Shown in pieces: positions 17,254 through 32,606 of a stretch of DNA of 64,000 nucleotides (position 1 is the first letter of the stretch; every line of letters begins with the position of its first letter). This DNA is from Desulfatiglandales bacterium (lineage in GTDB: Bacteria > Desulfobacterota > DSM-4660 > Desulfatiglandales > HGW-15). The stretch spans positions 588,874-652,873 of the forward strand of contig CAXXJJ010000004.1 of assembly GCA_963667015.2 (NCBI GenBank), written 5' to 3'. The notes beneath the pieces are model-generated. The model did no database searches and was not told where the DNA came from. It worked only from the letters and a program-made list of their open reading frames with translations. Both the position numbers and the translations under genes were made by a program.

Positions 17254-17465
17254 ATTCAGAATCGATAGTCGATACACCTCAATCCGTATATCCTGATAAA
17301 AAGCAGCTCGTCCCGTTAGGTAAAGCAGCAGGGGAATGGTTATCGGGAGGGCGTATTAAACTGGAATTAGAGGGCTAATTCACTGGCTGATATGGAATGC
17401 TTCCGGCCTATGTCTTTGTTGACGGTGTTGGAAAACGGATATATATCATCTGAGGACTGCAGACA

Positions 17466-17693
17466 ATGAGTGAGAATGTAAATAAAGAAATGAGATTCGG
17501 TGTTGTTGCTATAAATAAGGGATATGTAACACCTGAACAGGTAATTGAAGCACTAAATATTCAGGTAAAGGAAGATATTTCAGCAGGAAGGCATCGAAGG
17601 ATCGGGGCAATACTGCTTGAACTGGGCCTCCTGACAGATATACAGATTGCTGATGTCCTGAAAGAACTGGAAAAACAGATTGATAACAACTGA
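17466..17693 (+). CDS. 75-aa stand-alone MshEN/T2SSE_N-like repeat protein
   Basis: Two copies of the pattern RxGxx(hh)xxG(hh)xxxxhxxxLxx(Q): RFGVVAINKGYVTPEQVIEALNIQ and RIGAILLELGLLTDIQIADVLKEL. GAGGA RBS. Confidence 0.6.
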   Translation: MSENVNKEMRFGVVAINKGYVTPEQVIEALNIQVKEDISAGRHRRIGAILLELGLLTDIQIADVLKELEKQIDNN

Positions 17694-17782: not shown

Positions 17783-18556
17783 ATGCTTCTTGCAGCAGAC
17801 AATATACGGATAACCAGCAGTATAATAGAAAAATCCCTTGACCGCCAGGATGCATTACCCCTTCAGAAATTGGTGACGCAAATACAGGGCGCTGGAGCTA
17901 TTGATATAAATACCGGTCCATTGAAATCCCGCACTGAAGAAAAAATGGAATTTCTTATTTTTTCGATTCAGGAGGTGACTGATCTGCCGGTCATTCTCGA
18001 CACCACAAATCCACAGGCTATAAGGAAAGGGTTAAGTATAAGTAAAAACAGGGTAATCATTAACGGATTTTCTCTTGAACATGATAAACTTGAAAAAATA
18101 CTTCCCCTTGCAGCAGAATTTGATGTAGACATCATTGGCTACCTGTTGGATTCAAATGGCCTGCCGCCGTTCGATACCCAGGACAGACTCAACATTGCAG
18201 TAGATCTATATAAGATATGCCGGGAATCAGGAGTTGCTGAAGAGAGGCTGATAATTGATCCAGTTGTCTCGCCCCTTCTCTGGAATGACGGTGCAGTCAG
18301 AAATATGGAGCTGTTGAACATACTGGGACTTCTTCCCGACATTCTGGGATTTCCAGTTAAAACAATAGCAGGTCTTTCAAACCTGACAAGCGGAATAAAG
18401 GATATGCATAAGAGGATTATTCTACAGGAGGCGTACCTTTCGATGCTCTCTGCCTCAGGACTTTCCATTTTGCTCATGGATATGCTCAACAGACATCTTG
18501 TAGAGATGGCACAGACATGCAACTTACTGACAGGTGAAAAACCTTTCTGTGTATAA
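17783..18556 (+). CDS. Pterin-binding (dihydropteroate-synthase-like) methyltransferase; methyl-THF:corrinoid methyltransferase family
   Basis: N-terminal ...AADNIRITSS...GAGAIDINTGP and a TIM-barrel-length protein (257 aa) resembling MeTr/AcsE-type proteins. Confidence 0.65.
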   Translation: MLLAADNIRITSSIIEKSLDRQDALPLQKLVTQIQGAGAIDINTGPLKSRTEEKMEFLIFSIQEVTDLPVILDTTNPQAIRKGLSISKNRVIINGFSLEHDKLEKILPLAAEFDVDIIGYLLDSNGLPPFDTQDRLNIAVDLYKICRESGVAEERLIIDPVVSPLLWNDGAVRNMELLNILGLLPDILGFPVKTIAGLSNLTSGIKDMHKRIILQEAYLSMLSASGLSILLMDMLNRHLVEMAQTCNLLTGEKPFCV

Positions 18557-18746: not shown

Positions 18747-19616
18747 ATGATTAAAAAAGTAATAGCTGTTTTTTCAATAGTCCTGCTGTGCATTTCCATA
18801 AACAGTTGTTCAACAACAAAAGTATGTGACAGGGAATGCCTCAAGGGTTTCATAACCCAGTATCTCGATGCACTTTTAGCCCAGAACCCGGATATCCTGC
18901 CTGTTTCTTCAGATGTAAAATTTACCGAAGACTGTAAGGAATTGAAGATTGGAGAAGGGCTCTGGAAGAGCAAAATCAAACTCACAGATTACAGAAGAGA
19001 TATTATTGATATCAAAGAAGGAACTGCAATATCATTCCTGGTGATCGAAGAAAAAGATACTCCGGTCTTCTTTGTCATGAGACTGAAGGTCCAGGATCAG
19101 AAAATCACTGAAATTGAATCAAGTGTAGTTAGAGGTAAAGAAGAAGGAATGCTTTTTGATCCAAGCAATCTCAAGACAATAAGCAAAGAGATGGCCTATG
19201 TTCCCAAAAAGGAGCAGCTCAATACCCGGGAAGAAATGATCAAGATGGCAATTACATATCCCGAGGGTTTGAAAGTGGGAAGTTTTGTAAAAGTGGATTC
19301 GCCAATGGCAGATGATGCATACAGATATGAAAACGGCCAGCTTATGGCAGGTCCGGGCTGTACCTTCTTTAAGGGCTGCGACAATATGAAGACACAGACG
19401 ATACCTACCCTTGCAGGAATCAAATATAAAGTTCTGGCTGTTGACGAAGAAATGGGTGTTGTTGCCATTCGTATGAATTTTGGCCCTGGTTCTCTCTTTT
19501 CCGGTCAGGGCGAACTTGATGTATGGCATTCATTCAAGATTTACGACGGCCTGATACATTCGGCAGAAGCATATTGTGAAAAAGTCCCACCCGGAACGCC
19601 ATTCGGGTGGGAATAG
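18747..19616 (+). CDS. Exported hypothetical protein (possible lipoprotein)
   Basis: Signal peptide MIKKVIAVFSIVLLCISINSC. GGAGG RBS. No family recognised. Confidence 0.6.
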   Translation: MIKKVIAVFSIVLLCISINSCSTTKVCDRECLKGFITQYLDALLAQNPDILPVSSDVKFTEDCKELKIGEGLWKSKIKLTDYRRDIIDIKEGTAISFLVIEEKDTPVFFVMRLKVQDQKITEIESSVVRGKEEGMLFDPSNLKTISKEMAYVPKKEQLNTREEMIKMAITYPEGLKVGSFVKVDSPMADDAYRYENGQLMAGPGCTFFKGCDNMKTQTIPTLAGIKYKVLAVDEEMGVVAIRMNFGPGSLFSGQGELDVWHSFKIYDGLIHSAEAYCEKVPPGTPFGWE

Positions 19617-19718
19617 TACAGGGATTCCCGGGGCCCTATACCGGCAGTTATCTTCGGATGATATTTTCATCCGGAAAAGAGTATCAAGATCACTGTAATA
19701 GCAGGTATTCATTGATCA

Positions 19719-19746
19719 TTGACACCCTGATTATCTCTGGTATAGT
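19719..19746 (+). promoter_or_regulatory. Sigma70 promoter candidate with extended -10, upstream of the FeS/AOR operon
   Basis: TTGACA (19719-19724), 16 nt, TATAGT (19741-19746), with TG at 19738-19739. Confidence 0.55.
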
Positions 19747-19839
19747 ATCCGGGTTCCTCAATATATAGTTGGCCATTTTAAGCAGCGGTTTTTCGGCCTT
19801 AAAATGATATTAACCTGTTATCAATCAAGGAGTTAACTA

Positions 19840-20634
19840 ATGCCAAAAGACAAAAAACCTGACAAAAATGAAACATCAGAAAAGACGATGAACCGGCGGC
19901 AATTTCTTGTCGGCGGCAGTGCTGCACTTGCTGCAGGGGCAATTGCAGCAACCACCGGTGTAAAATCCGCTGCGGCAGCTGAACCCGAATCCTATCCGGA
20001 ATCAAAGGGCTATCTGGTTTATGACAGCAAAAAATGTATCGGCTGTACAACATGTATGCTGAGCTGCTCCATGGTCCATTATGGAGAGCAAAACCTGTCG
20101 CTCGCCAGAATCCAGATAATGCAGGATTCCTTTGGAAAATTCCCGAACGATCTCCAGATATCACCCTGCAGACAGTGTGTAACACCTCCATGTGTTATAA
20201 ACTGCCCGGTAGGAGCCGCTTATATTGACACCGAAAACGGCAATGTCAGAAGGATTAACGAAGATGATTGTGTCGGTTGTGGAACCTGCCTTAAAATGTG
20301 TCCCCAGCAGCCTCATCGACCTGTATGGAACCATATTACAGGAAAATCCACAAAATGCGACCTTTGCATCGATACCCCTTACTGGGATGAAAAAGGTGGT
20401 CCCGGTGGCAAACAGGCGTGCGTGGAATCATGCCCAATGCAGGCCATCAAGTTTGTTACAGAAACTCCTGACCAGAAAGAGACCGAAGGGTATAATGTCA
20501 ACCTGCGTAATGATCACTGGTTAAATCTTGGCCTGGTTGATGACAGCAGGATAATACCACCAAAAATGAAAAATGCGGGACCGATGATGTTTGGCCCACC
20601 AAAAGCAAAACCAAAACCAAAGGCAAAGGGATAG
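19840..20634 (+). CDS. Tat-signal 4Fe-4S ferredoxin-type subunit (multi-cluster)
   Basis: Twin-arginine motif NRRQFLVGG. Cys motifs CIGCTTCMLSC, CRQCVTPPC, CVGCGTCLKMC and CDLC...C. Lys/Pro-rich C-terminal tail. Confidence 0.85.
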   Translation: MPKDKKPDKNETSEKTMNRRQFLVGGSAALAAGAIAATTGVKSAAAAEPESYPESKGYLVYDSKKCIGCTTCMLSCSMVHYGEQNLSLARIQIMQDSFGKFPNDLQISPCRQCVTPPCVINCPVGAAYIDTENGNVRRINEDDCVGCGTCLKMCPQQPHRPVWNHITGKSTKCDLCIDTPYWDEKGGPGGKQACVESCPMQAIKFVTETPDQKETEGYNVNLRNDHWLNLGLVDDSRIIPPKMKNAGPMMFGPPKAKPKPKAKG

Positions 20635-20644
20635 GAGGATCGAT

Positions 20645-22702
20645 ATGAAAGGCGGATATACAGGTAAAATAGCAAGAGTAAACCTGACTACCAAATCGGT
20701 AAGCACGATTCCAACTGAAAAATACATAGAGTTTGGCGGTGGTCATGGAATAGGATCAGCGATTTTCTTGGATCTGGTAGGGGACCAGCTGCCCTTTGAG
20801 GCATTTGATCCCAGAAATTTAATAATAATGATGACATCCCCGTTTTCAGGAACAAATGTCCCTGCTTCCGGCAGATGCGAAGTTCAGGGCCTTGGTCCGA
20901 TGCTTTATCCTATTGAATGGTTTGGCCACAGCAGCTTTGGCGGACGCTTTACTTCCCAGCTAAAGTTTGCCGGGTGGGACGGCATTGTTGTTGAAGGTGC
21001 TGCAAGCGGACCCGTATGGATAAACATTGTAAATGATAAAATCACAATTGAAGACGGGAAAGACGTCTGGGGAATGGATACCTGGGATACTCAGCAGGAG
21101 ATATCCAGGCGGGTAATCCCCGGTCTCAGGCAGGGTGAATGGGCAGAGGTTGCAGATGATGACTACACTACCCAGATACCGGCTGTAGTATGCTGCGGTG
21201 TTGCAGGAGAAAACAAAAGTCGTCTTGGAGCCCTTCTTCATGGACCGGGATCACAGGCTGCATTATGTGGTTTTGGAGGGGTATTCGGTTCAAAAAATCT
21301 GAAAGCTATAAGCGCAATAGGAACAGGCGGTGTAAAGATTGCTGATCCGCAGGCCTTTATGGATGCGCGTTTGTGGTACAGACAGTTTCAGTGGAACGTA
21401 GACAATCCCCGCGAAGCGAAAAGATTTGAGGCCAGTGGATACAGCCTTATCAGCGGTGCACCCAGCGGAGGAAACGTTACAAATGGAAGACCTCCTCTGG
21501 TCCCGGCAAGGGCGGCTGCCTGTGCGTCATGCCCCAGGGGCTGTCGCATGAGAACGGCTACAGGTGACAGTAATGAATCGGTTTGCGCTGGAACAATGGT
21601 TTTTGGAGGATTCGGAAGAGGAAACGCTGCAGAGTCCCGCAGAAATAACGACCTGATGCAAAAATACGGTTTCGGACACTGGCAGCTTATGCCGACTATG
21701 AGATACCTGACGAGTCTCAAATCAAGAGGCCTTATAGGTCCCGGCAAGCTGATGGAATGTGATCTTCCTCTGGACAAGGAGAATACTCCGGGTTTTGCAA
21801 ATATGCTCATGGATGCCATGGCAAACCGAAAAGGGATCGGTGATGACATGGCCGAAGGTGCTGCAAGATGGGCAAAAAAATATGGTCTACTTGAAGATGA
21901 TATGAGCAAAGGAATACTCCGTTTGAGCTACTATGGGACCCAGGAGCACTATGACTCAACCACACAGGTCGAGTGGGGTTTCGGATCTATCCTCGGTGAA
22001 CGCGACCTTATGCTGCATATGATGTCTAATTATCCGCTTCACTGGATGGCCCAGTCGCGTGACCCCTATCTGACAGCAGAGGAAGCTGCCAAGATTTATA
22101 CAAAGGCAATGGTTCCCTATCATGATTATGACGGTCATGAGTTCATGCTTGACTACGGCGATGGTCCAACCGGAATTTATTCTGACCACAAGGTAAAACA
22201 GGTTGCCTGGGTAAAACATTATGAAAAAATGTGGATAGGCGGCGGAGGATTCTGCGGCTGGAGATGGCCAATGTGTATCACAAACAATACAGCAGACAGA
22301 CACGGGCCCACACCCGAGGCAGAACAGAGATTCTGGAATGCTGTAACTGGAGACAACAAAACCTTTGAAGAATCCATGGAACTGGGTCATAAGATCTATA
22401 CCCTGGACAGGTCAATCTGGGTACTGCAGGGCAGGCACAGGGATACGGAAGTATTTCCGGATTATATTTACGACCAGCCCACCAGAGGAAGTGAGCAGCC
22501 CATGTACCAGAATGGCAAATGGGCCTACGAGACCGGTCAGGGCAGAAAGCTGAGCAGAGAAAAATTTGAAGACTGGAAAACCAGGTTCTATAAATTTGAG
22601 GGTTACAATCCTGAAAATGGATACCCCACAAAGAAAACCCTTAAGAAAATGAATCTCGATAAAGTCGCCACGCTTTTGAAGAAGAAGGATAGACTGGGTT
22701 AG
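20645..22702 (+). CDS. Aldehyde:ferredoxin oxidoreductase (AOR) family tungsto-/molybdopterin enzyme
   Basis: Lies within track ORF 20591..22702. ATG at 20645 follows AGGAGG. N-terminus MKGGYTGKIARVNLTT...FGGGHGIGSAIF and cluster motif CASCPRGC (CxxCxxxC). Confidence 0.85.
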   Translation: MKGGYTGKIARVNLTTKSVSTIPTEKYIEFGGGHGIGSAIFLDLVGDQLPFEAFDPRNLIIMMTSPFSGTNVPASGRCEVQGLGPMLYPIEWFGHSSFGGRFTSQLKFAGWDGIVVEGAASGPVWINIVNDKITIEDGKDVWGMDTWDTQQEISRRVIPGLRQGEWAEVADDDYTTQIPAVVCCGVAGENKSRLGALLHGPGSQAALCGFGGVFGSKNLKAISAIGTGGVKIADPQAFMDARLWYRQFQWNVDNPREAKRFEASGYSLISGAPSGGNVTNGRPPLVPARAAACASCPRGCRMRTATGDSNESVCAGTMVFGGFGRGNAAESRRNNDLMQKYGFGHWQLMPTMRYLTSLKSRGLIGPGKLMECDLPLDKENTPGFANMLMDAMANRKGIGDDMAEGAARWAKKYGLLEDDMSKGILRLSYYGTQEHYDSTTQVEWGFGSILGERDLMLHMMSNYPLHWMAQSRDPYLTAEEAAKIYTKAMVPYHDYDGHEFMLDYGDGPTGIYSDHKVKQVAWVKHYEKMWIGGGGFCGWRWPMCITNNTADRHGPTPEAEQRFWNAVTGDNKTFEESMELGHKIYTLDRSIWVLQGRHRDTEVFPDYIYDQPTRGSEQPMYQNGKWAYETGQGRKLSREKFEDWKTRFYKFEGYNPENGYPTKKTLKKMNLDKVATLLKKKDRLG

Positions 22703-22735
22703 CAGGTCTTGGCACTTATTTTGATTTAAAGACGC

Positions 22736-22770
22736 ATTCGCCGGGAAGAATATTCTCCCCGGCGAATTTT
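22736..22770 (+). terminator. Intrinsic terminator after the AOR gene
   Basis: ATTCGCCGGG-12 nt-CCCGGCGAAT, a 10-bp stem followed by TTTT. Confidence 0.8.
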
Positions 22771-22938
22771 CTATGAAAGATATAACTAATTTAATATTTT
22801 TAACCTTATCCGGGTTGAAGATGTCAAATTTCACCAATATTTTTATTATGATCCAGGCATACATTTTTCACACAGTTATCCAACCTTGTATGTGTCTAAT
22901 TTTAAAAATCAATCTAAAATCGATTCAGGAGGCTTAAC

Positions 22939-24672
22939 ATGAAAAGGATATTTACATCAGCTAAATTCCTGCTTTTACTTGCTGCGTCTATCCTTGTGTG
23001 CAGTGCAGCTCAGGGCAGTGAAAAAATTACGGTAATGAATCCGGCAATCGCAAATCCCATGGTGGACCGGGTAGCATTGACAAAACGTCTCGACACACTT
23101 GATAACAAAACCCTTTATCTCGTGGATATCAACTGGGGCGGCCCTGATGCGGCCTACGGTGTTTTCAAGGAAATGGAAATATGGTTTTCTGAAAATATGC
23201 CCAAGGTAAATGTTGTACTAAAGAGAAAAAACGGCAGCTACATGTCTGATGACCCGGCATTATGGAAAGAGATCGGTGAAAAAGGAGATGCCGCAGTTAT
23301 CGGAATATCTGGTTGAGACAGCTGTACCTCGGCCGTGAGCCGATTCTGTAAAACACTGGAAACAACCTATAATATACCTACTGTAGGCGGAGCAGCAGCC
23401 AATATCATGAGTTATGCTGTTGGATATAATATCACAAATGTAACCGGCATGCCTGTCCGTTTTGTCGGATTTCCTTTTCCTGTTGCAGGCCAGCCTCAGA
23501 AAGTCCACAGGCAATATGTAAGGGGAAATGATATGTTGAGCGGTAAACCAATGATGCAGACCATCATTGAAGGCCTTACAAAACCACGGACGGAAGAAGA
23601 AAAATACTCAGGTCCTGCTCCGGCCCCGACTCCGGAACCCAGATTTTTACCCCCGGATACAGAAGAAAACCTTCGTCGTCTTTTCAAGGAGAAGGACTGG
23701 ACCGACTATAATCCAATAATTCTTCCTACTGAAGATAAAGTAAAAGCCATGCTTGAAGGCACAAGTCACGAAGCAGATGAAGTGCTTGTAACCCTTAACT
23801 GGCCTGGAGGAGAAAGAAAATTTACCGTGGAAAAAGCAGCAATCTGTGCTGTTATGGCAGGTGCAAAACCTGAATACTTCCCGCTTATTCTGGCACTTGG
23901 GACGCAGGTAGGAAATTTTGGCAATTCCACCAGTTCAATGGCAAATATAATACTGGTCAATGGACCGATACGCAATGAACTGGGGATGAATTACAAGGGA
24001 AATGCCATGGGCCCCCATAATGAGGTCAACTCCGTTGTGGGCCGTGTCTTCACCCTTATGGCAAAGACAGCCGGCAATATTCATCATGGAGTAACTACTT
24101 TCAGCACACTGGGAAGCAACCTTCAATACAACAATCTCTGCATAGCAGAAAATGAAGAGGCCCTTCCGGAAGGCTGGAAACCCTACCATGTGAGTATGAG
24201 GTTTAAACCCAATGACAGCACGATCACGGTAGGCAGGGGTTGGACCTATATTTCAAGTGTAGGTGAAGCACAGAAGGCTTATCCTCCACACTTCCTCATG
24301 CGTGATTATATGAGATCTCTGGGAGCATTCGGTGGTGCATCCGTAATAATGGACCCGACAGTTGCAAAACTGCTTAAGGATAATTATGAAATGAAAACAA
24401 AAGAAGATCTCAGTAAATGGCTTGCAGAGAATATTGAAAAAACAGTTGATTCATTCTGGGGTAACGGTGTTGCAGCCACAGGAATGCTGCCGATGGCCAG
24501 ACAGGGCCTGCCTCCATATGCAGATTACCTGAATATGCCGGGAGATACGCTGATAAAGCCCTTTAACGCCCGCAGCATCAATATATTAGCTGTTGGCGGT
24601 GAGATTCAGACAACATGGTTTGTTACCGATTTCGGTCTTGGCAGGCCGGTTTCGGTTGATGAGTGGAGATAG
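22939..24672 (+). CDS. Predicted exported selenoprotein (577 aa) with in-frame UGA at 23314-23316 (Sec126) in a G-U-D-S-C motif. N-terminal GrdB/UGSC-like redox domain fused to an uncharacterised ~440-aa domain
   Basis: Track ORFs 22939..23316 and 23335..24672 share one frame and are separated only by TGA plus 6 sense codons. The second ORF has only a GTG with no SD. Reads ...GDAAVIGISG-U-DSCTSAVSRFCKTLE.... Sec-type signal peptide MKRIFTSAKFLLLLAASILVCSAAQG. A hairpin follows the TGA. Confidence 0.65.
23317..23349 (+). promoter_or_regulatory. Candidate bacterial SECIS-like hairpin
   Basis: Inner stem UCGGC/GCCGA (23329-23333 with 23339-23343) and apical loop CGUGA (23334-23338), which begins 17 nt after the UGA. 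A possible outer stem ACAG/CUGU (23318-23321 with 23346-23349). Short by comparison with fdhF-type SECIS elements. Confidence 0.4.
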
Positions 24673-24682
24673 AAAAGCAGGA

Positions 24683-24836
24683 TTCAAGGGTTCGAGGGGT
24701 CGAGGGTTCCAGTGCCTCTGTAATAACCTGAGTAGTTATTTTTAAGGTCTCAATATTATTAAAGTTGAGAAATCAGTTGTAGATATTTTTATTTTTTTTC
24801 GCTTGAACCCTTGAAACCTGGGACCCTTGAACCCTT
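24683..24836. repeat. Imperfect ~28-bp inverted repeat of TTCAAGGGT-type units flanking a ~90-nt AT-rich spacer, followed by a T-run
   Basis: 5' arm ttcaagggttcgaggggtcgagggttcc (24683-24710). 3' arm gaacccttgaaacctgggacccttgaaccc (24804-24833), followed by tttttt. Confidence 0.5.
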
Positions 24837-24860
24837 TTTTAAAAAATTTTAGGAGCAACA

Positions 24861-25280
24861 ATGAAAAAAATAGTTTTATTAATTTTAATGGTTATTTTTA
24901 CTTTTCCGGCACCCGGCAAAGCAGCTGAAGTGGCTCAGATCAAACCCCATGAGTTAAAGCAGCTAATTGATAAAAAAAGTAAATTTATACTTATAGATTC
25001 AAGGGACAGCGGGAAGTATAGCCAGGGGCATATTGAAGGAGCTGTAAATATCCATTTTGATCCTTCAGGAGACCCCAATGCCCGTCAAATGATTCTGATG
25101 GCCCTGCCTATTGATAATCTTATAATTATTTACGGTGATGCCGAAGATGAGAAAGCAGCTGAAGGTCTTGCACTTGAGCTATATGATATGGGCTGTGACA
25201 TGGATAGTCTGAAGATTTTATCCGGAGGCATAGCTCAGTGGAAAAAGCAGGGATTCACTCTTATAACTGCCGGCAATTAA
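24861..25280 (+). CDS. Exported rhodanese-homology-domain protein lacking the active-site Cys
   Basis: Signal peptide MKKIVLLILMVIFTFPAPGKA. Rhodanese pattern ILIDSRDSGKYSQGHIEGAVNI. The active-site loop position reads IIIYGDAEDEKAA, where Cys is expected after the beta-strand. Confidence 0.75.
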   Translation: MKKIVLLILMVIFTFPAPGKAAEVAQIKPHELKQLIDKKSKFILIDSRDSGKYSQGHIEGAVNIHFDPSGDPNARQMILMALPIDNLIIIYGDAEDEKAAEGLALELYDMGCDMDSLKILSGGIAQWKKQGFTLITAGN

Positions 25281-25295
25281 CAGGAGATCTATAAT

Positions 25296-27662
25296 ATGGC
25301 CGACTTAGCAGGTGTAAACGGGCAAAGGAAGGAATTCAGGGTTGTTGGGAAACCAAACCTTCCCGGCAGACTGTCCTATTCAATAGCAACAGGCGTGGCA
25401 AGATACGGCGCAGACTATGTAGTTCAGGATATGCTCCATGCAAAGTTTTTAAGGAGCCCCTATGCAAATGCCATAATAAAGAGCATGAATACAGACAATG
25501 CCATGAAAATCCCCGGAGTTGTCGACATTCTTACCTGGGAAGATGCGGATATCAAAGGGTTGAGTGCAGGCGGGGGATTTATGGGACCCGGCCAGCCTCT
25601 CCTGACTGATGCTGCAGATCAGGAAGGAGGCATTATAGGGGCAATTGTCGTTGCTGAAGATGAAGACATCTGCGATGAAGCCTTAAGGAGGCTTAAAGAA
25701 GACTCTGAGTGGGAAATATTGCCGCATCTGGTAGACATCCTTGAAGGAAGAAAACCGGATGCACCGGTGATTCGCCCCCCTGCCCCACAAACAGGCGGAG
25801 GAGGATTCGGAACAGGAGGAGGAAATAACCCGCCTAAAAAAGGTAATGTTTCCTATTCCAACATAAGCGCGGGCGATATAGAGGCCGGGTTCAGGGAGGC
25901 TGATCATATCATAGAATATGACATAAACCTCCCTGCATTTGCGGGGCATCTCCCGGATCCTGTAGGATCTGTTGCATGGTGGTTTAATGCCCCTTATCAT
26001 GGCGAAGGGAAGAGCCTCAGGATAGAAGGCAATGCCTGGGGCCATGACCAGGTAGTGGGCATGTACAAGATGCCCCCGGAAAAGGTCTTTCAGGAGTGTA
26101 TGCTTGTAGGAGGCAGATATTGTGACTGGGGCATACGCGAATCCCAGTTAATCACACCCCTTTTAGCTAAAAGAACCGGAAGACCGGTCAGATGTGTTCA
26201 GAGCCGCTATGATCAATATGACTTCAACCTTAACCAGCGCTTCATGCATATGAAGATCGGCTTTAAAAAGGATGGCCTGATTACCGCGATAGACGATTTT
26301 TCAATCGCAGACAACGGGGTCCGAAGCAGTTCGGTTTTTGGCACTTCAATGGATCAAACCTATGGCCCCTATTTCACCACAAGGTGCCAGAATGTCAGGC
26401 AAAACATGGACATTGTTGACAGCAACCGCGGCAAGATGTGGCTAAGCGGTCAGCATAATCCAATGAACTGGGATTCAATAACCCTGGCAATACTTATGAT
26501 TGCCGATAAACTTGACAAAGACCCTGTCGATGTAGCAAGGCTTAATCTGCACGGACCCACATCCCAGACTGACCCTGATCCTGTACCCAGCTTTGAGGCA
26601 TGTATTGAAGCCGCAAAGAAAATGATGAACTGGAAGTGGCACAGAAAAGGTGAGAAAAAGCTTAAAGACGGAAGGCTGCACGGAGCAGGCTTCAGGTATC
26701 AGCAGTGTCCCAGACACTCCGGCATGGTGTTCAACCCTAAACTTGAACTCAGAAACGGTGTTGTACACCTTGATTCCAGGGGTCCTGTTATAGGCAATTA
26801 TATAATGGAAGCAAATATGATGGTTGTTGCCGAAGAACTTGGACTGAGGTATGAAGATATCAAGGGTGAACTCGATCACCATGAAATCTATAAACCCTGG
26901 GGTGGAGGAAGTGACGGAACAACCGCTTCTGGCTGGGCATTGAAGGAATGTGCCAATAAATTAAAAAAGCTGATCCTTGAGACTGCGATAGAGGAAGCAA
27001 ATAATCCTGCCCCGACTGGCGGTATTGGCGGATTTGGCCCGAAACAACCTCCCAATCCATTTAAGGATGCAAAACCTTCCGATCTTGACCTGCAGGATGG
27101 AAAGGTTGTGTTCAAAAACAATACCGATAAAGGGCTTCCCCTTGCACAGGCCGTCAAGTCCAACCTTTTTGCAACCTATTCAGGCAGGCCACCCCTTGCC
27201 CTATGGAACGAACGTGGCAAAAAACTGGACACCATGAATGTTGCCATGTGTGAGGTTGCTGTTGATACTGAGACAGGAGAGGTAGAAATCCTCCGCTTTG
27301 GCGTGGTCGCTGATCCGGGCAAGATCATGCGTCGTACCTCGCTTGAGAGCCAGATTCATCAGGTAATGTATTTCAGTGAAGGCTGCCAGCTGTTTGAAGA
27401 TTATATATATGATAATAAAACAGGTGTGAAACTCAGCACCAATATGTTTGAATATAAAAAACCGACTATTATGGATCATGCGCCGGTTGACATGGAACTG
27501 CTTGAAACCCGTGCGGGAAATGCCTGTTACGGGGCTAATGGTATCAGCCATTCACTTGCAAATACCCATCTTGTTATTTCTGCGATATACAACGCGATAG
27601 GCAAATGGGTCGATCCTCCGGCTACGCCGGATAAGGTCCTTAAGGCCCTGGGAAAGGCATAG
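25296..27662 (+). CDS. Xanthine dehydrogenase/aldehyde oxidase-family molybdopterin-binding large subunit (PaoC/CoxL-like)
   Basis: a/b-hammerhead N-terminus (RVVGKPNLPGR...ARYGADYVVQDMLHAKFLRSPYANA). 788 aa. Two Gly/Pro-rich insertions (QTGGGGFGTGGGNNPP and PTGGIGGFGPKQPP). Confidence 0.85.
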   Translation: MADLAGVNGQRKEFRVVGKPNLPGRLSYSIATGVARYGADYVVQDMLHAKFLRSPYANAIIKSMNTDNAMKIPGVVDILTWEDADIKGLSAGGGFMGPGQPLLTDAADQEGGIIGAIVVAEDEDICDEALRRLKEDSEWEILPHLVDILEGRKPDAPVIRPPAPQTGGGGFGTGGGNNPPKKGNVSYSNISAGDIEAGFREADHIIEYDINLPAFAGHLPDPVGSVAWWFNAPYHGEGKSLRIEGNAWGHDQVVGMYKMPPEKVFQECMLVGGRYCDWGIRESQLITPLLAKRTGRPVRCVQSRYDQYDFNLNQRFMHMKIGFKKDGLITAIDDFSIADNGVRSSSVFGTSMDQTYGPYFTTRCQNVRQNMDIVDSNRGKMWLSGQHNPMNWDSITLAILMIADKLDKDPVDVARLNLHGPTSQTDPDPVPSFEACIEAAKKMMNWKWHRKGEKKLKDGRLHGAGFRYQQCPRHSGMVFNPKLELRNGVVHLDSRGPVIGNYIMEANMMVVAEELGLRYEDIKGELDHHEIYKPWGGGSDGTTASGWALKECANKLKKLILETAIEEANNPAPTGGIGGFGPKQPPNPFKDAKPSDLDLQDGKVVFKNNTDKGLPLAQAVKSNLFATYSGRPPLALWNERGKKLDTMNVAMCEVAVDTETGEVEILRFGVVADPGKIMRRTSLESQIHQVMYFSEGCQLFEDYIYDNKTGVKLSTNMFEYKKPTIMDHAPVDMELLETRAGNACYGANGISHSLANTHLVISAIYNAIGKWVDPPATPDKVLKALGKA

Positions 27663-27672
27663 GAATACAGTA

Positions 27673-28062
27673 ATGCAGAAATATCTTACTAAATGGATTG
27701 ATTATAAACTTCCTACTGGTCAGGAATTTTCAGTGGCTGTCTGCGGATACAGCGGGAAGGTTCGGCATTTATACCTTGGAAATGACCCTATACGCAGGAT
27801 GATTGCACAGCATGTTTATGCGGAAGAAGGATTCTGTCAGATAGGTGACCACTGCTTTGCCCTGGACTGCCCCCTTAACAGGGCAGATAAGGAACATCTC
27901 CTTCACATGCTTGACATGACGGAGGATGAAGCAATGGACCCAGAGGCATCCGAACAATGGGGAACCGGAAGTACTCTGGAGGGCTTTCTGTTATTTGCCC
28001 GTAAGATAACCGAATCACTACCCGAAGACCTGAAAAAACCCCAGGCTCCGGTAGAGGAATAA
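27673..28062 (+). CDS. Hypothetical 129-aa protein
   Basis: ORF packed tightly between the Mo subunit and the methyltransferase. Contains a Cys/His-rich stretch FCQIGDHCFALDCP. No family recognised. Confidence 0.5.
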   Translation: MQKYLTKWIDYKLPTGQEFSVAVCGYSGKVRHLYLGNDPIRRMIAQHVYAEEGFCQIGDHCFALDCPLNRADKEHLLHMLDMTEDEAMDPEASEQWGTGSTLEGFLLFARKITESLPEDLKKPQAPVEE

Positions 28063-28081
28063 CAGGGACTCTGGAATATCT

Positions 28082-28933
28082 ATGGAAAAAGTAACAGACT
28101 GGATCGCACTGTGGAAAGAACTTGTCGAAAAGCAGGGGCCATTCTGGAACCATAAAAAAAGATCCAAAGATAACAGGGATAAATGGAAGGACAGGTCACA
28201 GGGATTTTATGACCGTGTCAAAAAAAGATGGTCAAAACCGGATCCTCACAGAGATTTTATTGTCTCCATGATTTCATCGGTCAGTGATGCCACTGTTATT
28301 GATATCGGTGCAGGAACAGGCGCATGGGCTGTTTATTTATCGAGATCAGCAAAAAAGATTACGGCAATTGAGCCTTCTGCTGAAATGAGACAGATATTAA
28401 GGGAAAATATAGAAAAAGAAGGTGTTGACAATGTTGAAGTCCTGGACAAATTATGGCCTGTGCCCGACATGGAAACACATGATTTCTCTCTCGCTTCACA
28501 CTCTGTTTACGGATGCGAAAATCTTCAGGGCTTTGTTAATGCAATGACCAGAGCCACGAGGAATACCTGCTTTATGCTGCTCCGGGCCCCTGATCATAAC
28601 GGTCTTATGGCAAGGGCCGCCAGCAGGATCTGGGGGCAGCCCTATGACAGCCCTAATTTTCAGGTAGCCTACAATGCAATGCTCCAGATGGGCATGTTTC
28701 CCAATGTGCTCATGGAAGAAAGAGGCATGTGGCCAAGATGGACAAATAATAACTTTGAAGAAGCATTTGAAAGGATCAGGTCAAGATTCGGGCTTGAAAA
28801 AGACACAGATTATGATCCATTCCTAAGGAATCTCATTGAGAAGCACCTTAATGAAAAAAACGGAATGATAAAATGGCCTTCCGAATTAAGAACCGGCCTT
28901 GTCTACTGGAATACTTTAAGAGAACAGGACTAG
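28082..28933 (+). CDS. Class I SAM-dependent methyltransferase
   Basis: Motif I VIDIGAGTGAWAVYL followed by an acidic residue after beta-2 (ITAIEPS). Confidence 0.75.
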   Translation: MEKVTDWIALWKELVEKQGPFWNHKKRSKDNRDKWKDRSQGFYDRVKKRWSKPDPHRDFIVSMISSVSDATVIDIGAGTGAWAVYLSRSAKKITAIEPSAEMRQILRENIEKEGVDNVEVLDKLWPVPDMETHDFSLASHSVYGCENLQGFVNAMTRATRNTCFMLLRAPDHNGLMARAASRIWGQPYDSPNFQVAYNAMLQMGMFPNVLMEERGMWPRWTNNNFEEAFERIRSRFGLEKDTDYDPFLRNLIEKHLNEKNGMIKWPSELRTGLVYWNTLREQD

Positions 28934-28939
28934 ACAAAT

Positions 28940-29998
28940 ATGAGCATTAACAAAAAGTGGAAGCAAAAATTTGATATACTGAAAAACTATATAGCAACTA
29001 ACTCTGAAATTATTATAAATACAAACGAAATATCCATACCGGAGCATCTACGTGATAAATTCTACGATTATTTTGATGATATCCGGAATACGTTTGTAGA
29101 GGATTTTTTCACCTCATTACCGCTGGATGCAGACACCCTTTGCAGGAACTATAATCAGTCGGAAAAAGAGCTGATCGACTTTCTAAATCTTGAACGTATC
29201 GACCTGCCTGTGGATCTTATAAGCTTTCTTCATAATCCAAGAGAGGGCATGGTACGCTGGCTCTACAACAGATTGTTCGAAGTAATACAGGAAAAGATAT
29301 CAATAGAAGATTTTGAACAGATTGCGGAAAATGATCTGGTCGCAACAACCGCAGAGATGTACCGGCTTGGGTATGAAACATGGGCAGTTCTGACACTTAT
29401 CCTTTCACTTGACCCTGAAAAGGCATACTCTGTTGAGCTAGATGAGGAATATAATCCTATTGCTGGAGAACTCAAGGTAATTGCCTTTGGTCGTCAGTTT
29501 AATCACAGTACAAAGCGCATACCTGAATTTATTATTCATTCAAAAAAACTTGATTGTTATGTTGCGGTAAAGGTGCCACTGGCAAAGGAAGTTGAGGGAT
29601 ACCATCTCCCCCACGAAGTCCCTAAAAAGATGCTGAGAGACCGCACCGGTGATACATCCTATGTACTGGATTCAAGGATTTTATTTCTTTCAGTGCTAAA
29701 AAACCTGGATGATATTCCTATTTATGCTGAAATATCTGAGCGTAAGATAGAAAGCCCTGACGCAGTAATAGAATTCCTGACCTCAGAAGACCTGAATGAC
29801 GCGGAAAAAATTTCTCAGATTCAAAAACGGTTAAAAATTATGAAACCAGGGCTTGGCGGTTCAGTTATGGTTATGAATCCCGATTATAAAACTGGTTCCG
29901 AACCATCAGCGGAAGGTATTGATATATTTTTAACAGGATTTGATAGAAATAAATTACAGCAGGTTACTCAAAAACTTTTAGTCGGCAAAGAAAGCTAG
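28940..29998 (+). CDS. Hypothetical protein (AT-rich gene)
   Basis: 352-aa ORF. The first 100 nt are about 25% G+C by my count, visibly lower than flanking genes. No family recognised. Confidence 0.55.
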   Translation: MSINKKWKQKFDILKNYIATNSEIIINTNEISIPEHLRDKFYDYFDDIRNTFVEDFFTSLPLDADTLCRNYNQSEKELIDFLNLERIDLPVDLISFLHNPREGMVRWLYNRLFEVIQEKISIEDFEQIAENDLVATTAEMYRLGYETWAVLTLILSLDPEKAYSVELDEEYNPIAGELKVIAFGRQFNHSTKRIPEFIIHSKKLDCYVAVKVPLAKEVEGYHLPHEVPKKMLRDRTGDTSYVLDSRILFLSVLKNLDDIPIYAEISERKIESPDAVIEFLTSEDLNDAEKISQIQKRLKIMKPGLGGSVMVMNPDYKTGSEPSAEGIDIFLTGFDRNKLQQVTQKLLVGKES

Positions 29999-30028
29999 AC
30001 TATACATGGATTGCCACAAGGTATTAAT

Positions 30029-30057
30029 TTGACACATATGTGCCAAACATCTATATT
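30029..30057 (+). promoter_or_regulatory. Near-consensus sigma70 promoter upstream of the 2Fe-2S subunit gene
   Basis: TTGACA (30029-30034), 17 nt, TATATT (30052-30057). Confidence 0.6.
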
Positions 30058-30102
30058 CGATTAGAGATGAAGTAACGTTTTTTCAACTCAATATTAGGAG
30101 AT

Positions 30103-30822
30103 ATGACTATGGCGGATGAGACAAGTAACATAAACCGCAGGAGCTTTCTTAAAAACGCGGGAGTCATAATCGGTGGAAGTGCCATTGGCGCAGCCGGAAT
30201 GACGCTCAGGCCGGAAATGGCGCAAGCCGCTGAAGCCGTTAAAGGGGTCCCCCGGACCGTTACGCAGTTCCGTTGCCCTGTTTGCAGCAAAAATTTCAGC
30301 AGCTTTGCAGAATTAAAAAATCATTTTAAAACGGATCATCCTGAACAAGTAGAGCCCGTCACTACAAAGCTCAATATAAACGGAGAGGAATGCGAGGTAC
30401 TTATCGAACCCCACTGGACACTTCAGCGAACCCTTCAGTTCAAACTCGGTCTTACAGGCGCAAAACACATGTGCGGCCGTGGCGTATGCGGATCCTGCAC
30501 GGTTATTATGGATGGAAGGGCTATCCTGTCATGTACGACACTTGCTGTGGAGTGTGAAGGCAAACACATCCAGACGGTTGAAGGCATAGCAGCAGATCCC
30601 AAATGGAGGCCCCTGATCGATTCCTATTGTAAATGGGATGCCATGCAGTGCGGTTACTGTACCCCGGGGTTTCTAGTAAGCGCCAAGGCTCTCCTGGATA
30701 AAAAACAAAACCCGACCGAAGAAGACTGCAAACAGGCACTGGCAGGCAATATCTGCTGCTGCGGTACATATCACCGTCATCCAACCGCCATCATGGAAGC
30801 CGCTCCTGCAGTAAAGGCATGA
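30103..30822 (+). CDS. Tat-signal (2Fe-2S)-binding small subunit of a molybdenum hydroxylase (PaoA/CoxS-like) with an inserted C2H2 zinc-finger motif
   Basis: Twin-arginine NRRSFLKNAG. 2Fe-2S motifs CGRGVCGSCTV and CGYCTPGF...CCCGTY. Insertion FRCPVCSKNFSSFAELKNHFKTDH. The start could be ATG at 30109, which has better SD spacing. Confidence 0.85.
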   Translation: MTMADETSNINRRSFLKNAGVIIGGSAIGAAGMTLRPEMAQAAEAVKGVPRTVTQFRCPVCSKNFSSFAELKNHFKTDHPEQVEPVTTKLNINGEECEVLIEPHWTLQRTLQFKLGLTGAKHMCGRGVCGSCTVIMDGRAILSCTTLAVECEGKHIQTVEGIAADPKWRPLIDSYCKWDAMQCGYCTPGFLVSAKALLDKKQNPTEEDCKQALAGNICCCGTYHRHPTAIMEAAPAVKA

Positions 30823-30838
30823 GCATAGGAGAAAAAAT

Positions 30839-31798
30839 ATGAAACCATTTAATCATGTAAATGCAACATCACTGGAGGAGATCAGGACAGCCCTTTCCGA
30901 TGGTAAAACAAACATTATTGCCGGCGGTACAGATCTCCTTGGGACACTTAAGGACAATATCCTCAGGACCTACCCTTCAACAGTAATCAATCTAAAGACC
31001 GTTTCCGGCCTTGATCACATTGAGGAAAAGGGCGGCATACTCAGCATAGGTGCAGCAACACGTCTTGCTGATATAGCCGGAAACCCGATCGTACAAAAGA
31101 AGTACACCGCTCTTGCCCAGGCTGCCTCAAGGGTAGCAACGCCCCATGTCCGTGAAATGGGGACAATCGGCGGGAACATAGCTCAATTACACCGTTGCTG
31201 GTATTTCCGTAAACCGGAAAACCGTTTTGACTGCAAACGTAAAGGCGGCAGCACTTGTTTTGCCATGAGTGGCGACAACCGATATCATTCAATCTTTGGT
31301 GCAAAGGGGGGATGTATTGCAGTAAATCCAAGCGATACGGCCCCTGCCCTTATCGCCCTTAATGCAAAGGTGGTTACTGACCGCAGAACTATAGATGCTG
31401 AAAATTTCTTTGATGTTAAACAGCCGGGCAATACTGTCCTGGAAACAGACGAAATAATCAAAGAAATCCAGATCCCCGAGCCTCCAAAGGGTGCAAAGAG
31501 CGCTTTTATAAAATTCGCATTCAGAAAGTCCATAGACTTTCCTATAGTTAACTGCGCTGTCATGGTCGGTGGAAAAAATCCAAGAATAAGCCTTAATGCC
31601 GTGGGTCCCACACCTGTTCGCGCAACAAAGGCCGAAGATGTAATCTCCGGGAAAAGCATAAAAAAAATCAGTGAAAAGGACGCCGAGGCTGCGGGTGAGG
31701 CAGCAGTTGCAGATGCAAAGCCTCTTTTCAAGGCAGCAAAGTTTAAGGTCCAGATTGCCAGAACCCTGGTCAAAAGGGCAATTTTGTCTGTAAAATAG
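30839..31798 (+). CDS. FAD-binding medium subunit of a molybdenum hydroxylase (PaoB/CoxM-like)
   Basis: IIAGGTDLLGTLKD and ATPHVREMGTIGGNIAQ motifs of the FAD_binding_5 family. Confidence 0.85.
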   Translation: MKPFNHVNATSLEEIRTALSDGKTNIIAGGTDLLGTLKDNILRTYPSTVINLKTVSGLDHIEEKGGILSIGAATRLADIAGNPIVQKKYTALAQAASRVATPHVREMGTIGGNIAQLHRCWYFRKPENRFDCKRKGGSTCFAMSGDNRYHSIFGAKGGCIAVNPSDTAPALIALNAKVVTDRRTIDAENFFDVKQPGNTVLETDEIIKEIQIPEPPKGAKSAFIKFAFRKSIDFPIVNCAVMVGGKNPRISLNAVGPTPVRATKAEDVISGKSIKKISEKDAEAAGEAAVADAKPLFKAAKFKVQIARTLVKRAILSVK

Positions 31799-31822
31799 AG
31801 AAGTGCATTATACAAGCTGAAA

Positions 31823-32593
31823 ATGATAGGTGCAATAGCAGGAGATATCATAGGGTCTGTTTATGAGCACAACAGTATCAAGACCAAAGATTTTCCTTTA
31901 TTCAGTGCCTTTTCCAGATTCACTGATGACACTGTGCTGACAGTTGCAGTTGCCTGGTCAATTTTATCCGGAATACCTTACAGGGATGCAATTAAAGAGA
32001 TCGGTAACCGCTACCCCGACGCCGGATATGGCGGAACGTTTATCCAGTGGCTTTTGTCAAAAGACGCAGGGCCATACAACAGCTGGGGCAATGGCTCAGC
32101 CATGCGTGTCAGCCCAATAGGATTTGCCTTTGAAACCATTGAGGAAGTGCTTGAACAGGCACGAATGAGTGCAGAGATCACCCACAATCACCCGGAGGGA
32201 ATAAAGGGTGCACAGGCAACTGCACTTGCGGTATACCTTGCCCGGCGAAAAACCAATAAGAACGGAATAAGAGAAGAGATAAAAAACCGTTTCAATTACA
32301 ATCTGGACAGGTCGGTGAATGAGATCCGCGCGGTATACGCATTTGATATATCATGCCAGGGCACTGTCCCCGAAGCGATAATTTCATTCCTGGATTCCGG
32401 ATCGTATGAAGATACAATTCGTAATGCAGTCTCTCTGGGAGGCGACAGTGATACCCTGGCCTGTATTGCAGGTGGAATTGCAGAGGCATATTATGGACAG
32501 ATTCCTGATGATATTTATAAGAAGGTGGAAGAGATACTGCCTGCTGATTTGATGGAAATTGTAAGAGATTTTTATACTGAATTTATCTTTTAA
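31823..32593 (+). CDS. ADP-ribosylglycohydrolase family protein
   Basis: MIGAIAGDIIGS..., FTDDT, GNGSAMRVSPIG and GGDSDTLACIAGGIAEA motifs. Confidence 0.85.
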   Translation: MIGAIAGDIIGSVYEHNSIKTKDFPLFSAFSRFTDDTVLTVAVAWSILSGIPYRDAIKEIGNRYPDAGYGGTFIQWLLSKDAGPYNSWGNGSAMRVSPIGFAFETIEEVLEQARMSAEITHNHPEGIKGAQATALAVYLARRKTNKNGIREEIKNRFNYNLDRSVNEIRAVYAFDISCQGTVPEAIISFLDSGSYEDTIRNAVSLGGDSDTLACIAGGIAEAYYGQIPDDIYKKVEEILPADLMEIVRDFYTEFIF

Positions 32594-32606
32594 TGGAGAT
32601 TTAAGG

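Follow-up and report, generated by a model that had tools for sequence, protein, structure and literature searches.

Gene content and transcription signals

The window analyzed here is a stretch of 64,000 nucleotides (nt) from the genome of a Desulfatiglandales bacterium (assembly GCA_963667015.2, contig CAXXJJ010000004.1, positions 588,874 to 652,873), and our subject is a gene cluster within it that encodes an exported selenoprotein, an enzyme of the aldehyde oxidoreductase (AOR) family with its polyferredoxin, and an enzyme of the xanthine oxidase (XO) family. Ten tightly spaced reading frames lie on its forward strand between 19840 and 31798 (Table 1). An earlier reading made from the sequence alone (the sequence-only reading) had described an island extending from 19719 to 31798, and the nine items that it listed are all found by Pfam and NCBIfam scans on the forward strand where it placed them. 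The conserved cluster is, however, longer than that range (about 14–16 kb); it starts at the DUF8021 gene (18747–19616) and reaches at least the ADP-ribosylglycohydrolase-family gene (31823–32593).

To judge from the spacing of the genes, there are probably at least four transcription units in this region: the polyferredoxin-AOR pair; the selenoprotein gene; a run of five genes from the rhodanese-like gene through the molybdenum (Mo) subunit, 129-amino acid (aa) protein, methyltransferase and 352-aa protein genes (gaps of 6–19 nt); and a run of four consisting of the Fe-S subunit, FAD subunit, ADP-ribosylglycohydrolase and sulfatase genes (gaps of 13–24 nt). The two promoter-like sites are the top consensus matches of the region (both 11 of 12 positions), and none of 200 shuffled sequences is as stable as the hairpin at 22736–22775 (dG -24.9 kcal/mol, z -3.58), so the suggestion that the polyferredoxin-AOR pair has a promoter and a terminator of its own agrees with what we find. 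The island is neither one operon nor one obligate system. An Rfam search covering all of the window detected neither a riboswitch (such as one for molybdenum cofactor) nor any other RNA near the cluster, and the window contains no tRNA genes.

Export signals were assigned from sequence motifs and hidden Markov model (HMM) matches. The four exported products proposed earlier all carry such signals, but they are joined by a fifth, the DUF8021 protein, which also belongs to the conserved cluster. The two pterin subunits (AOR and the Mo subunit) were correctly read as lacking signals, and both adjoin partners with twin-arginine translocation (Tat) signals.

Table 1. Positions of genes and other features of the cluster in the window
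Feature	Coordinates	Strand	Basis or remarks
DUF8021 protein	18747..19616	+	Signal or lipoprotein-like N-terminal peptide, tandem NTF2-like domains
Promoter-like site 5' of polyferredoxin gene	19719..19748	+	TTGACA-16-TATAGT with TG, 11/12; consensus match only
Tat polyferredoxin, 4x[4Fe-4S], NrfC/HybA/YdhX-like	19840..20634	+	Fer4 families, TAT_signal
AOR-family W/Mo bis-pterin subunit, YdhV-like	20642..22702	+	AFOR_N, AFOR_C
Intrinsic-terminator-like hairpin and U-run 3' of AOR gene	22736..22775	+	RNA folding
Exported selenoprotein, 577 aa	22939..24672	+	Single frame through TGA, Pfam UGSC
UGA selenocysteine codon	23314..23316	+	TGA at homologous position in relatives
SECIS-like hairpin UCGGC-CGUGA-GCCGA	23329..23343	+	Near-invariance, compensatory changes
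Inverted arrays of 8-nt units	24674..24840		AGGGTTCR / YGAACCCT
Exported rhodanese-fold protein	24861..25280	+	Rhodanese PF00581, E 4e-14
XO-family Mo subunit	25296..27662	+	Three XO-family domains
129-aa Cys/His-rich protein	27673..28062	+	No family match
Class I S-adenosylmethionine (SAM)-dependent methyltransferase	28082..28933	+	Methyltransf_11/25/23
352-aa AT-rich protein	28940..29998	+	No family match
Promoter-like site 5' of Fe-S subunit gene	30029..30057	+	TTGACA-17-TATATT, 11/12; consensus match only
Tat 2x[2Fe-2S] subunit with C2H2 zinc-finger-like motif	30103..30822	+	Fer2_2, Fer2, TAT models, zf-C2H2
FAD subunit with four-Cys insertion, predicted [4Fe-4S]	30839..31798	+	FAD_binding_5, CO_deh_flav_C
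ADP-ribosylglycohydrolase-family protein	31823..32593	+	PF03747, E 9e-37
Cys-type sulfatase, CSPTR motif	32607..34883	+	Sulfatase, E 5e-55

The selenoprotein and its rhodanese-like neighbor

Frames 22939–23313 and 23317–24672 are a single frame split by a TGA, which lies within the motif GISG-U-DSC. The product has a signal peptide of the general secretory (Sec) type, a UGSC domain with U-D-S-C, a linker and a C-terminal domain of about 350 aa. It matches the Pfam family UGSC (PF24696) with 34.2 bits against a cut-off of 25 (E 3e-8), and it lies below the cut-off of NF041046, an equivalog of about 147 aa (22.1 versus 125 bits). A homology search returned more than 2,597 relatives with 63–90% identity, nearly all of them annotated as "hypothetical" proteins of 421–447 aa that begin after the UGA. 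Gene callers split the gene into an N-terminal piece of about 125–135 aa and a piece of about 420–447 aa that starts at an internal GTG or ATG; owing to such calls, thousands of database entries lack the signal peptide and the U-x-x-C of this protein.

On comparative grounds the TGA at 23314 does encode selenocysteine, because a TGA occupies the homologous position in 62 of the 62 family members that were located by motif in GTDB loci, because the hairpin downstream has undergone compensatory changes, and because there is a full-length homologue (P0022) with cysteine in its place (GISGCDSCTS). Motif variants among the relatives are UDGC (27), UDSC (25) and UHGC (8). The hairpin, which resembles a selenocysteine insertion sequence (SECIS), begins 12 nt 3' of the UGA and is nearly invariant in 61 sequences, synonymous sites included; RNAalifold predicts three pairs in it, all standard in 61 of 61, and the compensatory changes are found in five loci (U-A in L013, C-G in L038, and A-U in L048, L054 and L076; the L numbers are our designations for loci in other genomes and metagenomes). 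The earlier idea of an exported UxxC selenoprotein is borne out by the recoded UGA and the Sec-type signal peptide. The family is present at 223 places in GTDB species representatives, with two to four paralogues per genome, and the 80 loci among the matches listed are all from metagenome-assembled or single-cell genomes (Desulfatiglans/Desulfobacteraceae, Acidobacteriota and some Gammaproteobacteria).

The AlphaFold2 model that we use for the selenoprotein is that of the natural cysteine homologue P0022 (pLDDT 92.4, pTM 0.88). In this model the UGSC domain is predicted to have a flavodoxin/Rossmann-like alpha/beta fold with the U-x-x-C at a strand-to-helix junction. No PDB neighbor was found for the C-terminal domain (the best Foldseek TM-score is 0.17–0.19 and concerns only the N-terminal domain; the best profile or sequence E-value is 0.27). 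The C-terminal domain belongs to a superfamily of 3,038 clusters at 50% identity, in which some members are fused to cell-surface domains (fn3, FIVAR, Cu_amine_oxidN1). The near-invariant columns in a broad alignment contain neither Cys nor His, so the U-x-x-C is the only evident redox centre.

The rhodanese-fold protein encoded downstream has a signal peptide, an acidic active-site loop and, in the window genome, a Gly at the position of the catalytic Cys. Among the 13 rhodaneses that we aligned this position is Cys in nine, Gly in three (the window, L014 and L017) and Asp in L016, and the Arg of CX5R is present in none. The window protein thus has the fold of a rhodanese sulfurtransferase but not its catalytic Cys or basic loop residue. 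The selenoprotein-rhodanese gene pair is nevertheless kept in Gammaproteobacteria and Terriglobia (L032, L047, L067 and L070). Directly 3' of the selenoprotein gene are two 39-nt arms, 77% complementary, in which three copies each of AGGGTTCR and YGAACCCT surround an 89-nt AT-rich spacer. The 8-nt unit recurs directly 3' of orthologous (L009, L011, L013, L086, L124) and paralogous (L051, L055) selenoprotein genes, and the inverted arrays could be a terminator/attenuator or a protein-binding array.

The polyferredoxin-AOR pair

The polyferredoxin has four 4Fe-4S motifs and the Tat motif NRRQFLV (its TAT_signal match, E 0.006, is below the gathering threshold), and it is without a C-terminal membrane helix. 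It matches the NrfC model (E 5e-31) and is 28% identical to E. coli YdhX, with the Tat region aligned too. Eight nucleotides separate the end of its gene from the AOR start, for which the ATG at 20642 is likelier than the TTG at 20591 and aligns with the start of YdhV. The AOR protein has both AFOR_N (PF02730, E 7e-47) and AFOR_C (PF01314, E 2e-26) domains and, in its translation, the CxxCxxxC motif CASCPRGC. It aligns over its full length with E. coli YdhV (25% identity, E 2e-47), and its top NCBIfam model is also that of YdhV (PRK09849, 224 bits versus a cut-off of 868); the classical AORs in the PDB match only its residues 5–240. By the published criterion of a Tat signal on the small subunit the pair is a "Class V WOR", and pairwise and HMM comparisons make the AOR a candidate member of WorL clade 41. 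Class V enzymes have at least one further subunit, typically a membrane or cytochrome subunit, but the region 18747–34883 encodes none.

E. coli PaoABC and YdhV/YdhX (PMC13328260) are precedents for hitch-hiking export and periplasmic aldehyde oxidation. By analogy, the two pterin subunits of the cluster would be exported by hitch-hiking on their Tat partners.

The XO-family enzyme

The Mo subunit contains the signatures GGRYCDW (in the Mo-site segment) and GISH. It was called PaoC-like in the sequence-only reading, and it is indeed an XO-family Mo subunit, but the catalytic Glu of PaoC is absent: a His aligns with the Glu of NdhM, HcrA, MOP and PaoC (E692) in all five PDB alignments listed, and this His is kept in the orthologues and in L069 and L071. 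The Mo subunit reaches no NCBIfam equivalog (PaoC model, 100.5 bits versus a cut-off of 1180), the Fe-S subunit scores 114 bits against the PaoA equivalog cut-off of 322, and the Pfam and NCBIfam scans reveal no chaperone of the PaoD/XdhC type among the cluster proteins. The Fe-S subunit has the Tat motif NRRSFLK (TIGR01409, 18.3 bits versus a cut-off of 16.7) and, between its signal and its Fe-S domains, a C2H2 zinc-finger-like motif at aa 55–80; the corresponding motif (F/Y)RCPxC...HxxxxHP is present in 32 of 37 Fe-S subunit hits, in versions with and without a Tat signal. The FAD subunit aligns continuously with PaoB (5G5G_B) and with 5Y6Q_B, all four Cys of its insertion being aligned, and CutM lacks this segment.

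By alignment, a distinct and widespread XO subfamily is delimited by the His and the zinc-finger motif; it has more than 370 metagenome relatives and the usual gene order FeS-Mo-FAD. That the Mo gene stands apart from the FeS and FAD genes in the window is a lineage-specific rearrangement. The locus L008 has two Mo genes. In L016 a remnant of a Mo-gene C-terminus (12382–12624, 81% identical, CISH for GISH) lies between the rhodanese and 129-aa protein genes, and a different Mo gene lies between the FeS and FAD genes; the remnant is the footprint of a rearrangement inside the cluster. L144/L145 (12365–14707) and 11 more metagenome loci have signal-less versions in which the FAD subunit is fused to a GltD-like Fe-S/NAD(P)H-type domain (about 781 aa), so the subfamily has cytoplasmic as well as periplasmic forms.

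Conservation of the cluster in other genomes

To survey the linkage, we queried 85 loci of the selenoprotein and 80 of the Mo subunit with the window proteins by tblastn; the metagenome loci L086–L165 come from peat, wetland, sediment and bioreactor samples. Co-localization of orthologues in related genomes had been proposed as the check on the island; they are not scattered, and their linkage is kept in 11 loci of GTDB species representatives (L006–L017) and six metagenome loci (L086, L093–L096, L124). The carriers of the full cluster are uncultured Desulfatiglans-like Desulfobacterota. The gene order, with variable genes in parentheses, is DUF8021-Fd-AOR-Sel-(Rhod)-(Mo)-129aa-(MTase)-352aa-FeS-(Mo)-FAD-(ADPRGH), where Fd is the polyferredoxin, Sel the selenoprotein, Rhod the rhodanese-like protein, MTase the methyltransferase and ADPRGH the ADP-ribosylglycohydrolase, and protein identities are 58–93% (AOR 73–87%, selenoprotein 73–90%, 352-aa protein 58–66%). 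There are three arrangements: the Mo gene lies between the Rhod and 129-aa protein genes in the window, L008, L009, L011, L012, L017 and L086; L016 has the canonical FeS-Mo-FAD order downstream; and in L093–L095 two divergent groups, Rhod-Sel-AOR-Fd and 129aa-352aa-FeS-Mo-FAD, face away from each other. The flanking genes differ between sub-lineages, and one upstream block is common to a subset of the Desulfatiglans genomes.

Similar combinations recur outside this set of orthologues. Beside the orthologous cluster, L094 (13187–19410, minus strand) and also L095 have a second set consisting of Sel' (53%), Tat Fd' (48%), AOR' (37%) and a cytochrome c in which an N-terminal region of about 270 aa without Pfam match is fused to a c554-type part with four CxxCH. 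On an Acidobacteriota chromosome (L167, 2770–12396) an AOR gene (70%) with no polyferredoxin gene adjacent lies between two UGSC-fusion genes, with an IclR regulator and a c554-type multihaem cytochrome gene nearby, and in L057 the selenoprotein gene is convergent with an AOR gene (66%). L071 has a GISH-type Mo gene, a Tat Fd gene (53%) and a selenoprotein gene in tandem; L098 has genes for a DUF8021-like protein, a Tat aldo-keto reductase, a GISH-type Mo subunit and a selenoprotein-like protein; and L048 has genes for an Fe-S subunit, an XO-family Mo subunit with the canonical Glu (29% identical to that of the window), a selenoprotein and a DUF8021 protein. The genes of these partial combinations in Acidobacteriota (L071, L167, L098, L048 and L064) are often directly adjacent and on the same strand. 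By a rough estimate, about four immediate adjacencies are observed in about 144 non-orthologous loci, versus about 0.5 expected from paralogue copy numbers, and this recurrence far from the lineage is suggestive evidence against pure coincidence. Elsewhere, acidobacterial selenoprotein genes lie beside HflX, ECF sigma/FecR or ABC genes.

DUF8021, accessory genes and surrounding DNA

The homologues of the first protein of the cluster match Pfam PF26061 (DUF8021), and its orthologues (75–84% identical) are encoded upstream of the polyferredoxin-AOR pair in 10 genome loci. DUF8021-like genes are also the commonest real neighbor of selenoprotein genes (20 of 83 loci). The AlphaFold2 model has tandem NTF2-like domains (pLDDT 83.6), and its top Foldseek match is the epoxide hydrolase Lsd19 (3RGA, E 1e-6), followed by SnoaL, ketosteroid isomerase and limonene epoxide hydrolase folds; a sequence search of the PDB found nothing. 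An NTF2-like fold is characteristic of proteins that bind small hydrophobic organic molecules or act on them as enzymes.

The 129-aa, methyltransferase and 352-aa proteins all lack signal peptides, and in this lineage their genes travel with the XO-type genes. The 129-aa protein has no match in Pfam, NCBIfam, PADLOC or PHROGs; it is 76–93% identical in orthologous clusters and always encoded beside the XO-type genes. The methyltransferase gene is absent from the divergent loci L093–L095. A restriction-modification role for its product was rejected, since it has no (D/N/S)PP(Y/F) motif, and the idea that the three genes are a defense or phage cassette was dropped when the sole match in PADLOC and PHROGs was a generic one to SAM binding. 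The 352-aa protein has no Pfam or NCBIfam family and no PDB sequence match; its gene has a G+C content of 0.38–0.40 versus 0.46–0.50 in its neighbors and is the least conserved of the cluster. The ADP-ribosylglycohydrolase gene lies 24 nt 3' of the FAD gene. In L016 and L088, too, it comes after the FAD gene, and L007 also contains it. The co-directional sulfatase gene lies 13 nt further downstream; its product lacks a signal peptide and has no orthologue in the related clusters examined.

Just upstream of the cluster a serine-recombinase (resolvase) gene (16200–16817, minus strand) lies in an AT-rich stretch (16000–17500, G+C 0.33–0.35); this could mark the edge of an island or be a vestige of mobility. 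A gene for a protein with a pterin-binding (MeTr/CdhD-like) domain (17783–18556), directly 5' of the DUF8021 gene, keeps this position only in L006 and L009; the other relatives have a different upstream block there. The MarR gene at 37784 was considered as a conserved regulator and rejected, since the MarR genes near the relatives (about 31% identical) are not orthologues. Farther away, an MttB-family methyltransferase open reading frame (46035–47492) gives the only Rfam hit in the window (PYLIS_3, 62.9 bits, 47007–47106). It has no in-frame amber codon and is thus a non-pyrrolysine MttB relative, grouped with genes for an OpuA-type glycine-betaine ABC transporter, a DAO-family oxidoreductase and a CN-hydrolase (38.5–47.5 kb).

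Possible function of the cluster

We tentatively propose, with a confidence that stops a little short of even, that this stretch is the core of a conserved cluster encoding a three-module extracytoplasmic oxidoreductase system that acts on aldehyde-like or carbonyl compounds and is partnered by the selenoprotein. Module A would consist of the DUF8021 protein and the Tat polyferredoxin, which would carry the signal-less YdhV-like AOR across the membrane; module B of the Sec-exported selenoprotein and its exported rhodanese-like partner; and module C of a periplasmic PaoABC-like enzyme (Tat Fe-S, FAD/[4Fe-4S] and Mo subunits) with the cytoplasmic accessory genes. Both pterin enzymes would oxidize aldehyde-type, related carbonyl or heteroaromatic compounds outside the cytoplasm, and electrons would pass through the Fe-S chains to soluble periplasmic carriers, which we propose because no membrane subunit is encoded; c554-type multihaem cytochrome genes adjoin only the paralogous sets. 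Together with the DUF8021 and rhodanese-like proteins, the selenoprotein would cooperate functionally with the polyferredoxin-linked pterin enzymes, acting on the same substrate stream or exchanging electrons with it, and such a partnership, by electronic or metabolic coupling, is its most likely role. The sequences show the gene content, the export motifs, the selenocysteine recoding, the conserved and rearranged linkage and the atypical active-site features; we infer the hitch-hiking export, the substrate class, the kind of coupling and the direction in which electrons flow. Genes for Tat aldo-keto reductases and a tannase-like esterase lie near relatives of the cluster genes, and these, with the NTF2-like DUF8021 protein, point to small organic or aromatic carbonyl substrates.

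The sequence-only reading, which saw in the island a candidate system, was right in that the linkage is conserved and recurrent, and it needs amending in that there are several transcription units and the modules are also found alone. A number of observations weigh against the three-module proposal. Even within the lineage some loci lack Rhod, Mo or methyltransferase genes; the polyferredoxin-AOR pair stands alone in five of six paralogue contexts, without a selenoprotein gene nearby (L166, L168, L169–171, L172 and L173); about 30 FeS-Mo-FAD operons have neither selenoprotein nor AOR genes nearby; and about 85% of the selenoprotein loci have no pterin enzyme gene within 10 kb. The separate promoter-like and terminator-like signals speak against strict co-transcription, and the enrichment of distant co-occurrences rests on small counts and a rough background. 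The XO-like enzyme, judging from the His that replaces its Glu, may not carry out the canonical hydroxylation, and we know of no case in which polyferredoxin Fe-S clusters reduce selenenylsulfides directly. The substrate class is an analogy, drawn from PaoABC, YdhV/YdhX and the genes that neighbor the relatives, and the named families offer no function from which to argue: neither an activity nor a role in physiology is ascribed to the Class V WORs (WOR clade 41), a Tat-linked AOR family (PMC13328260), nor an activity to UGSC proteins (PMC13188914) or to this XO subfamily.

Another view is that unrelated modules (polyferredoxin-AOR, selenoprotein-rhodanese, and the XO-like enzyme with its accessory genes) function independently and are adjacent through shared ancestry in one lineage or on a mobile island, a view that we think unlikely but that deserves serious consideration. 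Each module stands alone elsewhere, the promoter-like and terminator-like signals of the modules are separate, genes have been gained and lost inside the cluster (there is an IS110 element in L007), the resolvase gene and AT-rich DNA lie at its left edge, and the full cluster is confined to relatives of at least about 73% identity. Against mere juxtaposition, the adjacency has survived three rearrangements, one of them divergent; deep paralogue sets repeat the linkage of selenoprotein, Tat polyferredoxin and AOR genes in another order (AOR' 37%, Sel' 53%); and there are also the five acidobacterial loci with partial combinations and the rough excess of immediate adjacencies (see above).

In another scheme, very low-potential electrons from the polyferredoxin-AOR pair would enter the XO-like enzyme at its PaoB/HcrB-type [4Fe-4S]-FAD site, the selenoprotein at its Se-S centre, or both, so that an extracytoplasmic substrate would be reduced at the expense of aldehyde. 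The acid/aldehyde couple, at about -580 mV, and the [4Fe-4S] insertion of HcrB, which admits low-potential electrons in 4-hydroxybenzoyl-CoA reductase, are background to such a scheme; the window FAD subunit has the same kind of insertion, its Mo subunit lacks the base for canonical oxidative hydroxylation, no membrane anchor or quinone-linked subunit is encoded, and in L071 and L094' Tat polyferredoxin genes lie directly beside selenoprotein genes with no AOR gene between. PaoABC, however, works as an oxidase/dehydrogenase although its PaoB subunit contains the same [4Fe-4S], and moreover transfer of electrons from a polyferredoxin to a selenoprotein has no known precedent and the XO-like operon is usually without AOR; the GltD-like NAD(P)H modules of the cytoplasmic versions fit either direction. 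We consider a periplasmic reductase of this kind quite unlikely. More improbable still, and indeed very doubtful, is a role in cofactor care or Se/S trafficking, in which the selenoprotein and the rhodanese would repair the Mo=S/Se or W cofactor of the neighboring pterin enzymes, supply it with sulfur or selenium, or handle Se/S species. This had been offered earlier as a cofactor sulfuration or selenation alternative, and it draws on the presence of a rhodanese fold and a selenocysteine/Cys redox motif beside two pterin enzymes. It is also favored by the need of XO-family enzymes for a labile terminal sulfido ligand. For a Class V WOR, moreover, a sulfurtransferase resembling FdhD has been proposed (PMC13328260). 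Tat substrates, however, receive their cofactors in the cytoplasm, before export, and both proteins are Sec-exported and would act outside it, which disfavors such a role. The rhodanese in question has lost its catalytic Cys in the window, L014, L016 and L017, and has an acidic loop and no CX5R Arg, most members of the selenoprotein family have no pterin enzyme nearby, and the fusions of some relatives to cell-surface domains likewise speak against it.

A bolder form of the three-module proposal, which we regard as rather improbable, is that the selenoprotein is the substrate-handling or electron-accepting third part of an unrecognized extracytoplasmic class made up of a pterin enzyme, a Tat polyferredoxin and a selenoprotein, with paralogous copies in Desulfatiglans-like bacteria and Acidobacteriota. 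In any case three functionally orphan families meet in one cluster, and their recurrent link gives a testable lead; if the bolder form is true, it would provide the first physiological context for the Class V WORs, for an abundant orphan selenoprotein family and for the XO subclade with His for Glu. The component families have already been named, and their functions are orphan. Their combination, the long exported UGSC fusion with its unmatched fold, and the His/zinc-finger XO subfamily are undescribed as far as our searches reach, and the earlier statement that no described pathway has this combination holds for the literature searched: searches that combined Desulfatiglans, AOR and XDH, and searches for XO enzymes with Glu-to-His replacement, gave nothing relevant.

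Comparison with known systems

Since 2008 UGSC selenoproteins have ranked with the most abundant selenoprotein families of aquatic metagenomes, and they are still uncharacterized (PMC2398784, PMC13188914). The N-terminal domain of the window protein resembles them in passing the Pfam threshold, in having U-x-x-C at the same position, in the interchange of selenocysteine and Cys, and in its bacterial SECIS-type hairpin, and function is unassigned in both. The canonical family members are about 147 aa long with the motif UGSC, whereas the window protein has UDSC (UDGC or UHGC in relatives), is exported and carries an extra domain of about 350 aa; its model is flavodoxin-like, whereas a thioredoxin-like fold was proposed for the UGSC family in 2008. 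A "UGSC/Unknown_1 fusion" was named in the Global Ocean Sampling (GOS) analysis of Zhang and Gladyshev (PMC2398784, Fig. S1A) and may share the architecture of the window protein.

The XO-like enzyme shares with PaoABC its three subunits, the Tat signal on a 2x[2Fe-2S] subunit, the four-Cys [4Fe-4S] insertion in the FAD subunit and the signal-less Mo subunit. It differs in having His for E692 of PaoC, the GGRYCDW segment and the zinc-finger-like insert in the Fe-S subunit, in the position of its Mo gene three genes away from the FeS and FAD genes, and in the lack of an XdhC/PaoD-type chaperone gene. HcrABC is likewise an XO-family enzyme of anaerobes with a [4Fe-4S] insertion in its FAD subunit (TIGR03195 covers residues 3–251 in one stretch), but it is cytoplasmic, acts on coenzyme A (CoA) thioesters and keeps the conserved Glu; an orthologue of 4-hydroxybenzoyl-CoA reductase was rejected as an identification because the window enzyme has a Tat signal and is predicted to be exported.

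The closest parallel to the polyferredoxin-AOR pair is in YdhYVWXUT and the Class V enzymes, where the gene for a signal-less AOR-family large subunit also lies beside a Tat polyferredoxin gene, implying a periplasmic orientation. YdhYVWXUT includes a YdhU-like membrane cytochrome, YdhW and YdhT, none of which is encoded in the cluster. Unlike in ydhYVWXUT, the associates of the window AOR are instead a selenoprotein, a rhodanese-like protein and a DUF8021 protein.

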